Below, one piece after another: positions 38,147 through 48,482 of a stretch of 64,000 nt of DNA. Below the pieces are notes generated by a model. It did not search any database. It had not been told where the DNA came from and saw only the letters and a list, made by a program, of their open reading frames with translations. The DNA comes from Curvularia clavata (lineage: Eukaryota): contig CP089274.1 of assembly GCA_023920165.1 (NCBI GenBank), positions 2,666,001 through 2,730,000 of the forward strand, written 5' to 3'. How positions within the stretch are numbered: position 1 is the stretch's first letter; every line of letters begins with the position of its first letter. The translations under genes and the position numbers were made by a program.

Positions 38147-38394
38147 ATAGCTCGATGATGAAAGATGTGACGTTAATGACTGTATTATTGTAGAAGAGAG
38201 ATATCTAGATGTATGTGTGCGTATGTGTAGTATGTGTAACTCTTGGGTCTGACTTGGCGCTTCGGCTACTAAAAGTGATGCCGACTTGGGCGTTTTCAGC
38301 CGCACGGGAAGCGAGAGCCGAGGCTACGGGTAAGGGTGCGGGAGTGAGTACGGGTGGCGGTTGCGGCCAAAGATGTAGGAGTTTAAGTATGAGA

Positions 38395-38600
38395 ATTTAG
38401 CGCTAAAAAGTACTGAAATGTATAACTACTTAAACTAGTTTTGATATTTCTATTACATTTCTCTAAAATTTATTTCTAATTTTAATTTTATTATGAATTA
38501 GATGTTGCAAACATATGCTTAGGGAGATTGTTATGATTCTAAGATAACTAACTAATAACTAACGGCTGTAAAAGAATGCTAGTTATAGTAATAATTGCGG
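38395..38600. other. AT-rich block (possible RIP-degraded repeat end)
   Basis: Abrupt drop in GC with many TpA dinucleotides just inside the left inverted repeat. Confidence 0.55.
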
Positions 38601-38770
38601 CTAAATTTTCCAGAAAAGCCACAAAAGTTGTCATTTGCGCTGTCATCTCTTCAATCTTTCGTTTCACTGTCATGACCGCTTCCCAACATCCAATGAACGG
38701 GCCTCACCATGCTGAGTCTTTCACAATAAAGAATTATGTATCGAGAGACTGATAGATTTCCAAAAAAGAT

Positions 38771-40873
38771 TTACCGATTAAAAACGGGTGATAACTCAAG
38801 GGTGCGCCATTCCTCCCAATTCGACTTTCTCCCTCTCGTCCACCACACTGTAACCCCCGAACCCTGACTGTTAGATACGAACAAATCAGTAACGTTAGAA
38901 TCCGTTCGAGTCACAGCCGCCACATCTACCGATCCTAAAAACTTCTGCGTTCCTACTGGTTCCGACGTGCACCATTCGGCTTGTAATCCAGAACGCCGGC
39001 ATGTATGTATGGAACCATCAGAACCACGGACGAAGAGCTGGAGAGTCTCAGGTGAGGGCTTGATGACAGTGACTTTAGATTCAGCACTGATACCTGCGCG
39101 AAGAGGTATCGGATCCCAGGCGCGCTTCCAACCTGAGCTTACTGTCCAGTTGGTGGTATATGCTTGCCCATTCAGCTTGCGAGCAAATATTTCAATGGTA
39201 TCCGCATTTGGAGCGACAGCTGATATTTCGGTCTTATTAGAGAATTGCTGACCGAGTGACTCCCAGTCAGTCCAGCCACTGTCACCATTCCATCCCAGCG
39301 TTTTGACGTTGCCATCTGCGTCACAAACAAAAATGTTCATGTCTTGTTGAGTTCTCGTGATGACTGTAATGTGTGCTCGATCTGGAAAGCTGTGAGTGTC
39401 CTTGGGGAGCGATTCCCCATAAGTGCCGTTCGACCATCCTCTTCCATTTATCCATTGCAGTGCGTTAATATGTCCGTCTTCTGACTGACAGAATAAATCC
39501 AGAACGTCCTCGCCACGTGATATTACGGCTACTTCGGCATTTCCATAAAATCCCTCCCACACCTGTTCCCAGGATGACCACCTGGACCACTTGAATGAGG
39601 AAATGATGGGTATTTCTGGGACATGCCACCACCTAGTAGAGATTTTGCCATAGATATCGCAAGCAAAAATATCCAACTTTTCTGCAACCCTTGACACTGC
39701 TGTTATTTTGGCACGGGGAGCAAAATCACCATCAAGATTCTGGCTCGTAGACGACCAACCGGTGTTCTGCAACCCCAAAATTTGATGAATCCAACCTGGG
39801 TCCTGCAACCACCATAAGGTATAAACACGTCCATCTGGTCCACATATGAATAGATCGATCTGCTCTGTCTTACGAGACAAGGCAGTGATACAAAACCGTT
39901 TACTTGCGTCTTGAACTGTCTCTTCTACTGTGCACGCTTTCTCCACGTTCGCTGGCGGGATTACTGATAGCACTTCTTTCCCATACGCCGCCGCCGTTGC
40001 GGCCGCGTATGCCTGCCACTGATTGTTTTTATGCGAGTCGGCGTAGTCGGAGATTCCACGGATTACTAGACACGGGAAGCTGTTCAATAGACCTGCCGCT
40101 TCCATCTCAAAGCAAAGTACGCCGTCAAGCTTTGCGCTGATTGAGTCTCTTTCTGCTGCACTCTTTATGACCTGGTTGCCTGATGCGATCGTCCCGTAGT
40201 GTATCACTACCTCCTCGTCGCTGTCACGCGCCTTCCGCACCTCTTGTCTCTCTTTCTTACACTTGTCGCACGTAGGCCTCTTATCTTCGTGATCGTACGT
40301 CGCCATAAAGAGAATATCCGCCCCAGCTTTATCGCGCCGAAACCCAGGAATACGTTGAAACTTAGCGATATGCTCGGCCACTTTGCTTCTCTTACTGTGC
40401 TCATTCGCTTTCACAACAGATAATGCAGAAAGCAATATCGCTGGTGGTGAATTAAGTGACCCCGTCCTCTCAAATCCGCTTAGAGTAGCCTTGCCAGAGT
40501 CGTATTGTACAACGCCGCCATAGATTCCATTAGGTTGGCTCACTACTACGTCCCCTAGGCGTATGTCTGCCTCTGCGCTCGGCACGCCCCCGCCAATGCC
40601 CACCATAAGGCCAAAGCGGATGCCCTCAAAGGTGTTCTTCATTTGCATCGCCACAGCTACCGCCGAGTTGTTTCCGGTGCGCCCAGCTGGCAGACATGAA
40701 ATGACAACGTTGTGTCCGGCTATTGAGCCGAAGGAGTATGTGTTCCCATCATGAGGATCTTGGTTGAGAGGCGCGTGTTCTTCGTCGAGCATCTCCCGTG
40801 CCGCAGCCAGCTCGATCGAGAGGGCGCACACCCACCCGACGGTGTAGTCTTCACGGCGCCGCTGGAGCGGCAT
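38771..40873 (-). CDS. PNP_UDP_1 (nucleoside phosphorylase-like) domain fused to a 7-repeat Trp-rich lectin-type beta-propeller, 700 aa
   Basis: DYTVGWVCAL, GLMVGIGGGVP, IRLGDVVVS, HYGTIASGNQVI, CFEMEAAGL and RGISDYADSHKN, followed by seven repeats like ITALSR..IDLFICGPDGRVYTLWW..GW. No P-loop is present. Confidence 0.85.
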   Translation of the reverse strand: MPLQRRREDYTVGWVCALSIELAAAREMLDEEHAPLNQDPHDGNTYSFGSIAGHNVVISCLPAGRTGNNSAVAVAMQMKNTFEGIRFGLMVGIGGGVPSAEADIRLGDVVVSQPNGIYGGVVQYDSGKATLSGFERTGSLNSPPAILLSALSVVKANEHSKRSKVAEHIAKFQRIPGFRRDKAGADILFMATYDHEDKRPTCDKCKKERQEVRKARDSDEEVVIHYGTIASGNQVIKSAAERDSISAKLDGVLCFEMEAAGLLNSFPCLVIRGISDYADSHKNNQWQAYAAATAAAYGKEVLSVIPPANVEKACTVEETVQDASKRFCITALSRKTEQIDLFICGPDGRVYTLWWLQDPGWIHQILGLQNTGWSSTSQNLDGDFAPRAKITAVSRVAEKLDIFACDIYGKISTRWWHVPEIPIISSFKWSRWSSWEQVWEGFYGNAEVAVISRGEDVLDLFCQSEDGHINALQWINGRGWSNGTYGESLPKDTHSFPDRAHITVITRTQQDMNIFVCDADGNVKTLGWNGDSGWTDWESLGQQFSNKTEISAVAPNADTIEIFARKLNGQAYTTNWTVSSGWKRAWDPIPLRAGISAESKVTVIKPSPETLQLFVRGSDGSIHTCRRSGLQAEWCTSEPVGTQKFLGSVDVAAVTRTDSNVTDLFVSNSQGSGVTVWWTRGRKSNWEEWRTLELSPVFNR

Positions 40874-47220: not shown

Positions 47221-47700
47221 ATGCTAGCCATGTCCAGCAAGCCGTCTGGGTGCTACGGTCCGGGCCCTCGGTCCCTTGTCAAGTGGACCCAAGGATTCAT
47301 TGATTCCATGTTCATCAAGCTTGGAACGCCCTATGTAGTTCAGAGAGAGGTGGATGCCATCTTTTTCATTCAGCGCAACACATCAATCCCTGTTCCTATC
47401 AAAATTCAGTCGCAAATCCAGAAGAGTGGTAGTTGGTTTAATATAAGCCGCATTCCAAGATTTTAATCAACCGATGCTTGGATGCGCATGAGAGAAGAAG
47501 CGTAGGCCGCAGCGCAGCAGGAATTCTCCGGCTACCTTGATGAGCTACGGACTTTCCAACCTCCAGAGACAACCTACATTAGATTCTGCATTAGCTGGCA
47601 AGCTTAAAATCACCATCTGAGAAATGGTATTCCTTGCGGTCCTTTTACATCAGTATCTAAGTTTCATGATTTTGTTGTCGCGCCTGTCAACCGGTGTCCA
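47221..47700 (+). pseudogene. Degenerate APH/choline-kinase-like phosphotransferase relic
   Basis: One frame reads REVDAIFFIQRNTSIPVP..WFNISRIP..AWMRM..YLDELRTFQPP..CGPFTSVSKFHDFVV with stops at 47464, 47503 and 47605. No HxD catalytic loop follows. Confidence 0.65.
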
Positions 47701-48059
47701 GTCCTGGGCTCCCAGACCTGTGTGGGGACCATGTTCTCCAGGATTTCTGAAATCTGAAGTCTAAGCGCTCATCTACATTCTCAGAAGTTGCCACATGTCC
47801 GGGCCTGCTACCATGTTTCTGGACTCATAGAGCCTGCGTCTGCCAGGTACACATCTGCACATGCCATTGAAGTGTAATATCATTGGTGAAAATACAATAC
47901 CGACATTAACAGAATCGACAATACTGAGGACTAAGAGACTCTCGACATACGAATTGTAATGTACAGCTAACGTCCTCGTAGTAATGTGCGACGATAGAGA
48001 CGAAGACAAATCGAGCCTGCTGCTTTAGGCAGACCTCGACTAGATACTAGACGTTCCCA

Positions 48060-48255
48060 GTTAGAGTAAAATAGCGAAGAGAATAGTAGTCTAATGTAAT
48101 AGTACTGACTTCTTCTCAAAATGTTCAATTTTAAGCTTATTTTAGGAAAATAAAAATAATTAAATATTAAAATAATTAAATTTTTCAAGACATTCATAAG
48201 ACTATTGAGTTAGGCGTATTATGTTAGAGCTAGTTTTTATTATTTAGTGTTATGA
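48060..48255. other. AT-rich block (possible RIP-degraded repeat end)
   Basis: Very AT-rich stretch just inside the right inverted repeat. Confidence 0.55.
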
Positions 48256-48482
48256 CACTTGTGGCATAACCGCCACCCGTAGTGGCTGGCAAACTCCCCG
48301 CGCATGTCAAACCGGCGTGGGTCGCGGGCACATGCGCAAACATCTTGTCAAAGCCCACTCTGCTTTGACCTTTCCTCTCACGCTATGATCTAGACACTGC
48401 ATACCCGCAACCACGTTCCTTTTTGTCGCGCCCTCGTTTTCTTGTTTCTTTTTTGCTGGGCCAGACTTGGGTGTGCACTGCA

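Follow-up and report, generated by a model that had tools for sequence, protein, structure and literature searches.

An inserted gene block between AKR1 and AFG1 of Curvularia clavata and the case for a dead terminal-inverted-repeat element

The DNA considered here is a 64-kb stretch of the Curvularia clavata genome (the window), located at G000:C1:2666001-2730000 of the 32.4-Mb, 8-contig assembly by a genome search with the 14-mer described below. Between the genes AKR1 and AFG1 lies a 9.9-kb block (38349-48281, referred to as the island) that is bounded by an inverted repeat, has AT-rich ends and carries three accessory genes. The block has been inserted into the spacer that separates AKR1 from AFG1, and it is interpreted, with moderate confidence, as a dead terminal-inverted-repeat (TIR) element. 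The features of the locus, in window coordinates, are as follows.

37433-38146, plus strand: last exon of AKR1 (ankyrin and DHHC palmitoyltransferase), left flank
38325-38348, plus strand: 24-bp stretch of either the element or the host spacer; its first 7 bases equal the start of the repeat, and it also resembles the spacer of relatives
38349-38362, plus strand: left 14-bp inverted repeat (TA and 12 bp); an imperfect match to the right end runs on to about 38376
38380-38620, no strand: left subterminal AT-rich block, GC 0.26, composite repeat-induced point mutation (RIP) index +0.44
38771-40873, minus strand: gene with PNP_UDP_1 and a PLL/fucose-lectin-like beta-propeller; intact, intronless, 700 aa
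41395-41610, no strand: remnant of a dispersed repeat, with 74-87% identical pieces at four other places in the genome
42619-45010, plus strand: chimeric terpene cyclase-prenyltransferase gene (FgGS/variediene synthase-like) with an in-frame stop at 43526-43528
45344-46574, minus strand: intron-containing CRAL-TRIO (Sec14-like) gene, facing the synthase gene tail to tail
48050-48260, no strand: right subterminal AT-rich block, GC 0.25, composite RIP index +0.64
48268-48281, minus strand: right 14-bp inverted repeat; read inward, it is predicted to fold into two short hairpins (z -3.4)
48483-49936, plus strand: AFG1 ATPase, start codon and main exon, right flank

The insertion and its breakpoints

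Metagenome contigs were scanned with the last AKR1 exon, which returned 80 loci, and matches to cargo genes were accepted at E 1e-6. The exon was at least 60% identical at 26 of the 80 loci, and AFG1 lay 591-704 bp downstream in 18 of these 26, several of which are near-duplicates, so that they represent fewer than 18 species. In the remaining eight, AFG1 lay at 2.1 kb in one and the sequence ended too early in seven; the other 54 loci are distant and showed no AFG1 in the stretch of DNA examined. With 38349-48281 deleted, the AKR1-AFG1 spacing of the window becomes about 690 bp, like that of the relatives. Homology to the closest relatives stops at 38323-38334 and restarts at 48282-48291 (16 of the 18 loci compared). 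These data show that the 9.9-kb block was inserted into the spacer between the two genes.

An earlier note, made from the window alone, had called everything between the repeats accessory, and the adjacency of AKR1 and AFG1 in the relatives bears this out; cargo genes standing at this locus in relatives that lack the repeats, which that note would have counted against its own proposal, were found at none of the 80 loci. Its expectation that the breakpoints match the repeats holds to within about 25 bp, the base-level junction being only bracketed, as the closest relatives (AKR1 exon identity of only 79-85%) are too distant for a base-level verdict. The predicted empty site, with AKR1 and AFG1 joined at a single TA, was recovered as far as the adjacency of the two genes, and these distant sites have no alignable TA. 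Sequencing-run shares were obtained for 23 runs with a query that was 70% flank and, leaving aside the two possible source runs, reached at best 0.51, which is no evidence either way because such shares cannot tell an empty site from divergence.

Upstream of AFG1, the relatives have two conserved motifs, corresponding to 38317-38323 and 48291-48302 of the window, which are normally 8-12 nt apart, and the insertion lies between them. AFG1 expression may change, since the insertion parts the two motifs. In one more distant relative (L117:10648-12750), the gap from AKR1 to AFG1 is 2.1 kb vs. about 0.7 kb, and the one open reading frame (ORF) tested in it had no Pfam match.

The repeats, the RIP-like ends and the outer 24 bp

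The repeats at 38349-38362 and 48268-48281 are exact reverse complements beginning with TA, as the earlier note had described, and the core genes stand about 200 bp away (AKR1 stop at 38146, AFG1 ATG at 48483). TA is outermost at both repeats and thus present on both sides of the block. Exactly two copies of the 14-mer occur in the genome, both at the island ends. These TIRs, which are short for the Tc1/mariner-type group, sit at the insertion boundaries, within about 25 bp of the comparative breakpoint on the left side and within 10 bp of that on the right side. The inverted match within the breakpoint brackets is 14 bp, whereas neither 5,974 pairs of randomly drawn 80-bp windows nor 4,000 shuffles gave one longer than 12 bp. 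The weaker similarity said to continue inward is indeed present, though weak, with anchored p values between 0.003 and 0.10 over five lengths (0.039, 0.10, 0.06, 0.003 and 0.015 at 14, 20, 30, 50 and 70 bp, respectively) and p 0.04 in a local alignment of the two ends beyond the 14-mer. No inner copy of the TIR was found inside either end, even by RIP-tolerant matching, which argues that neither end is a complete miniature inverted-repeat transposable element (MITE); the possibility, raised against the cargo transposon at the outset, that each end is an independent MITE is not borne out.

The AT-rich blocks that the earlier note placed just inside the repeats are the only RIP-like blocks of the window. 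Sliding 220-bp windows meeting RIP-like thresholds numbered 9 of 3,189, all at the two island ends, and the RIP index that the same note had suggested computing is positive at both ends and negative in the cargo genes and the 10-kb flanks (-0.49 to -0.70). The RIP-like composition of both ends indicates that they are once repeated DNA.

It is very improbable that the block is a captain-less Starship relic, or a repair patch at a break, with the inverted repeat incidental. The host does have DUF3435 captains (6 matches at 3 places), captain-less Starship relics with NOD-like receptor (NLR)-type cargo have been described (PMC9156397), and 14-bp inverted pairs arise commonly by chance. However, the repeat at both breakpoints goes beyond the controls given above, a captain remnant, DUF3723 and ferric reductase were all absent from the scanned island ORFs, no flanking direct repeat other than TA was seen, and no look-alike of the ends occurs near the main captain locus. 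The first gene of the island is not a DUF3435 captain, such matches being confined to C7, C8 and C3. The captain at G000:C7:2853198-2854514 (minus strand) lies towards the end of contig 7, where transposons are dense, and the pieces on C8 and C3 are decayed.

The left side also has a second, degenerate copy of the repeat start, overlooked in the earlier note, 24 bp outside the first (38325). Given its match to the first seven bases of the repeat (p 0.013-0.022 vs. shuffles), 38325-38348 may belong to the element; given its somewhat better match to the spacer of the relatives, it may be host DNA. Of the nine variable bases with which it begins, 5 match the relatives' spacer at most of the closest loci, as compared with 3 of 9 for the right-hand candidate, and at one of these loci the two tie (4 vs. 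4 of 9). The spacer from motif to motif is 8-12 nt in the relatives (16 loci), and the window has 25 nt to the left and 9 nt to the right of the repeats, an excess of about 24 nt. A G-rich tract with a six-base period (38325-38366) spans the left boundary, with no stable fold predicted. At the right end, a predicted hairpin includes the repeat (z -3.39, matched by 0 of 200 shuffles), and none is predicted at the left end.

These observations bear on a further reading, in which the block is a non-autonomous Helitron2-type unit on the minus strand, with its 5′ T at 48281, its 5′ repeat in the hairpin and its 3′ repeat set 23-24 bp in from an end near 38325; such a unit would make no target duplication and would have captured its cargo in rolling-circle transposition. 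According to PMC3627910, Helitron2 elements have asymmetric repeats of 8-15 bp, the 5′ one terminal in a hairpin and the 3′ one 20-30 bp inside, and FoHeli3-5 have repeats of 13-16 bp, a hairpin at the 5′ end only and lengths of 9-11 kb (PMC5148889). The island is like these elements in its short repeat, its hairpin at one end only (z -3.4), its size and a possible 23-24 bp asymmetry, and a cut near 38325 would leave an 11-nt spacer, as found in 8 of the 16 relative loci, several of them near-duplicates. However, the asymmetry is a candidate only: host spacer is no worse a fit for the outer 24 bp. The terminal words published for these elements are not those of the island ends, and the similarity of the two ends extends inward past the repeat. 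No RepHel gene was found in the element or the host: Helitron_like_N gave no host match in a search whose control was also silent, and the host has only two PIF1 genes, both host-helicase-like. PF14214 is likewise counted as 0 in five Pleosporales rows of the supplement to PMC5148889. That three whole genes were brought into a Pleosporales genome with no detectable Helitron by a Helitron2-type unit lacking RepHel and having asymmetric ends is judged distinctly unlikely; if it were true, it would mean multi-gene cargo transport by fungal rolling-circle elements, probably arriving from another lineage.

The cargo genes

The earlier note described the cargo as a defence gene and a terpene gene pair. 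A lectin-like PNP_UDP protein and a synthase are indeed present; the former has no NOD domain, and the latter contains a stop. In fungal NLRs, PNP_UDP often serves as the N-terminal effector domain (PMC4986451). A domain scan of the 700-aa protein found neither NACHT nor NB-ARC, so that it failed the NLR test, and for want of a NOD domain its role in defence, possibly as a glycan-sensing enzyme, can only be inferred. Its C-terminal propeller matches Fungal_lectin below the cut-off and is predicted to resemble PLL-like beta-propellers (0.95 by features, TM score of 0.85 for the predicted structure); a PDB sequence search with the propeller returned nothing meaningful. Among full-length relatives, one from Bipolaris maydis is the closest (75%), and the host PNP paralogues show 67-71% DNA identity over the domain.

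The synthase resembles the FgGS/variediene synthase group (PDB 6vyd, 9e2h) exon by exon, the cyclase exon matching FgGS (E 3e-38) and the last exon matching variediene synthase (E 9e-110), and its closest named relative is from Pyrenophora seminiperda (73%). Unlike that group, it carries an in-frame stop, which comes after the second metal-binding motif in a stretch that is unbroken in all 14 homologues shown (of 109). Since the homologues read on at this point, the gene is probably a pseudogene. The deposited protein (P0121, 704 aa) lacks 23 residues round the stop that the homologues keep, and the annotation appears to have been spliced over the nonsense codon. The last exon of the synthase is 100% identical to a protein listed under Curvularia clavata.

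The CRAL-TRIO gene, a putative functional partner of the synthase, is 39-42% identical to another host CRAL-TRIO gene, and a literature search returned no report tying CRAL-TRIO to a terpene synthase in a fungal gene cluster. In the regions round five PNP paralogues and the CRAL-TRIO paralogue, inverted repeats occurred at chance level only. Apart from the host's own, no protein exceeded 77% identity to the cargo; the flank control likewise gave none above 86%, so that the cluster search does not show the cargo to be absent from close strains. On these identities, nothing speaks for a recent horizontal transfer of the cargo from any sampled species, and none of the cargo genes was recently copied from the host. 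Broken reading frames also occur at 47220-47750, with no Pfam match at E 0.5, and by eye these resemble a decayed kinase- or phosphotransferase-like gene.

The cargo bears on the possibility that a small TIR element, or two inverted related remnants, came first and that the genes were built up stepwise in place, the 9.9-kb unit never having moved whole. The block is single-copy, RIP is confined to its ends, a further repeat remnant lies inside it (41395-41610), and the three unrelated cargo genes have their closest named relatives in different genera, all of which would suit such a history. However, the lack of an inner TIR copy leaves neither end a complete MITE, and the cargo has no close host paralogue as a source, given the PNP and CRAL-TRIO identities above. 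Stepwise build-up is accordingly regarded as unlikely.

The TIR-element reading, its precedents and the search for a parent

The insertion, the repeats with TA outermost, the RIP-like ends and the lack of a transposase lead to the favoured reading, namely that 38349-48281 is one old, single-copy, dead, non-autonomous TIR element of a TA-targeting (Tc1/mariner-like) kind. A Pfam scan of the island ORFs revealed no transposase, and the island DNA matches no host transposase locus. The ends would derive from a once multi-copy transposon family, and genes would have been gathered between them; a transposase acting in trans would have excised the unit at the repeats and placed it in a TA. The element would then have been immobilised by RIP and by the disappearance of its family, and the terpene synthase would have been inactivated since the insertion. 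The non-autonomous cargo transposon proposed in the earlier note thus stands as to the insertion, the repeats at its breakpoints, the RIP-like ends and the missing transposase, and lacks the parent or second copy that was sought.

A precedent of the ToxhAT type, to which the earlier note had appealed, does exist in the same fungal family. ToxTA (formerly ToxhAT), 14 kb in size, has been reclassified as non-autonomous and probably Tc1/mariner from its TA duplication vs. empty sites (PMC12506042), and has 74-bp TIRs with RIP decay (PMC6737239). ToxTA of Bipolaris sorokiniana and other Pleosporales resembles the island in size class (10-14 kb), in carrying several accessory genes of which one is NLR-related, in TIRs whose outermost bases are TA, in RIP-prone ends and in that no mobilising transposase of its own has been established. 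In contrast, ToxTA alone has been seen to transpose, resides in a Starship, carries TIRs of 74 bp and has had its TA duplication proven by comparison with empty sites, whereas the island occurs as a single copy between core genes, with a repeat that is perfect over 12 bp and imperfect over about 28 bp. By the papers' descriptions the two share no cargo gene, end sequences not being part of that comparison. In Pyrenophora tritici-repentis, transduplicating hAT and Tc1/mariner elements also hold host-type genes between TIRs in a Pleosporales genome; these are multi-copy, mostly keep their transposase and carry one extra ORF (PMC3538342), unlike the single-copy, transposase-free island with three genes.

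Because the TA duplication is unproven and neither a partner nor mobility was found, the block is not filed as a member of the ToxTA kind, and is considered a plausible second example by analogy. A second, unrelated ToxTA-like example, placed between core genes and outside any Starship, would suggest that mid-sized TIR cargo elements are a general route for accessory metabolism and recognition genes into the core genome, and that short, RIP-eroded ends cause such elements to be missed. The payoff is limited, since the island is dead, occurs only once and has lost one of its cargo genes to a stop. A literature search did not return the locus itself, and ToxTA was the one non-autonomous, TA-flanked, multi-gene element that it returned for these fungi.

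Inverted pairs of 14 bp are common by chance, the window holding 14 exact pairs that represent 10 distinct repeats, the island's included, and two of six other 20-kb regions containing another such pair, so that the case rests on the position of the repeat at the breakpoints. Several results weigh against the favoured TIR-element reading. Without the TA, the perfect repeat is only 12 bp (about 28 bp imperfect), and Tc1/mariner TIRs of Cochliobolus heterostrophus are 27-70 bp (PMC4112212). If the block were cut out at the repeats, the remaining spacer would measure about 36 nt vs. the 8-12 nt of the 16 relative loci. No homologue of the ends turned up in the genome when the whole island, the left end or part of the right end served as a DNA query, and no second copy of the unit was found in the host, the viral contigs or the 80 metagenome loci. 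Genome-wide, near matches to the 14-mer numbered 166 vs. 375 for a control (100 of the 166 were listed and 30 inspected), and a relaxed 12-mer gave 19 matches vs. 64, three of the 19 being the island itself and the other 16 showing no common downstream sequence by eye. Island-type ends occurred at none of 101 host DDE_1/DDE_3 loci, hAT, MULE, CACTA and Harbinger transposases not having been searched for, and RIP-tolerant alignment of the ends to 100 transposase loci was no better than that of shuffled ends (three shuffles each). The autonomous, transposase-bearing parent that a terminus search was expected to reveal was thus not found in the host genome; the parent transposon may be extinct or foreign.

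A variant of the 14-mer that is repeated on C1 (4 of the 30 inspected loci) proved to lie inside an unrelated repeat rather than at a terminus. The viral contigs matched neither the synthase nor the end motif, and the motif is absent from the text and readable supplements of PMC12506042, PMC6737239 and PMC4112212. Mutator and CACTA elements make target duplications of 9 bp and 3 bp, respectively, and by eye neither of these, nor the hAT duplication, was present at either candidate left end. The hAT duplication is 8 bp (PMC12506042).

The host is rich in DNA transposons, with at least 150 DDE_1 and at least 80 DDE_3 matches. The inspection for TIRs covered 30 + 20 DDE_1 regions and 30 + 20 + 1 DDE_3 regions, some of which gave no pair; many copies of both kinds are open-framed with perfect TIRs, beside many stop-riddled ones. 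Six copies of one host Tc1-type group start with TA-CGG, the same as the island. Elements of 1.46 kb (G000 L226, L228, L229, L237, L240 and L241) contain an ORF of about 436 aa that resembles DDE_3 weakly; their TIRs start with CTCTC, and their target duplications are apparently 5 bp rather than TA. Two others of 1.62 kb (G000 L194:3897-5520 and L242:1011-2634) encode a transposase with DDE_3 and a helix-turn-helix domain, and have TIRs starting with CACC and apparently 4-bp target duplications. At one metagenome locus (L055), the 4.4 kb after a major facilitator superfamily (MFS) gene do not match the oxidoreductase that follows the MFS gene in the window. Finally, the GC content of 54000-64000 is lower than that of the rest of the window, and this part is possibly a second accessory block.

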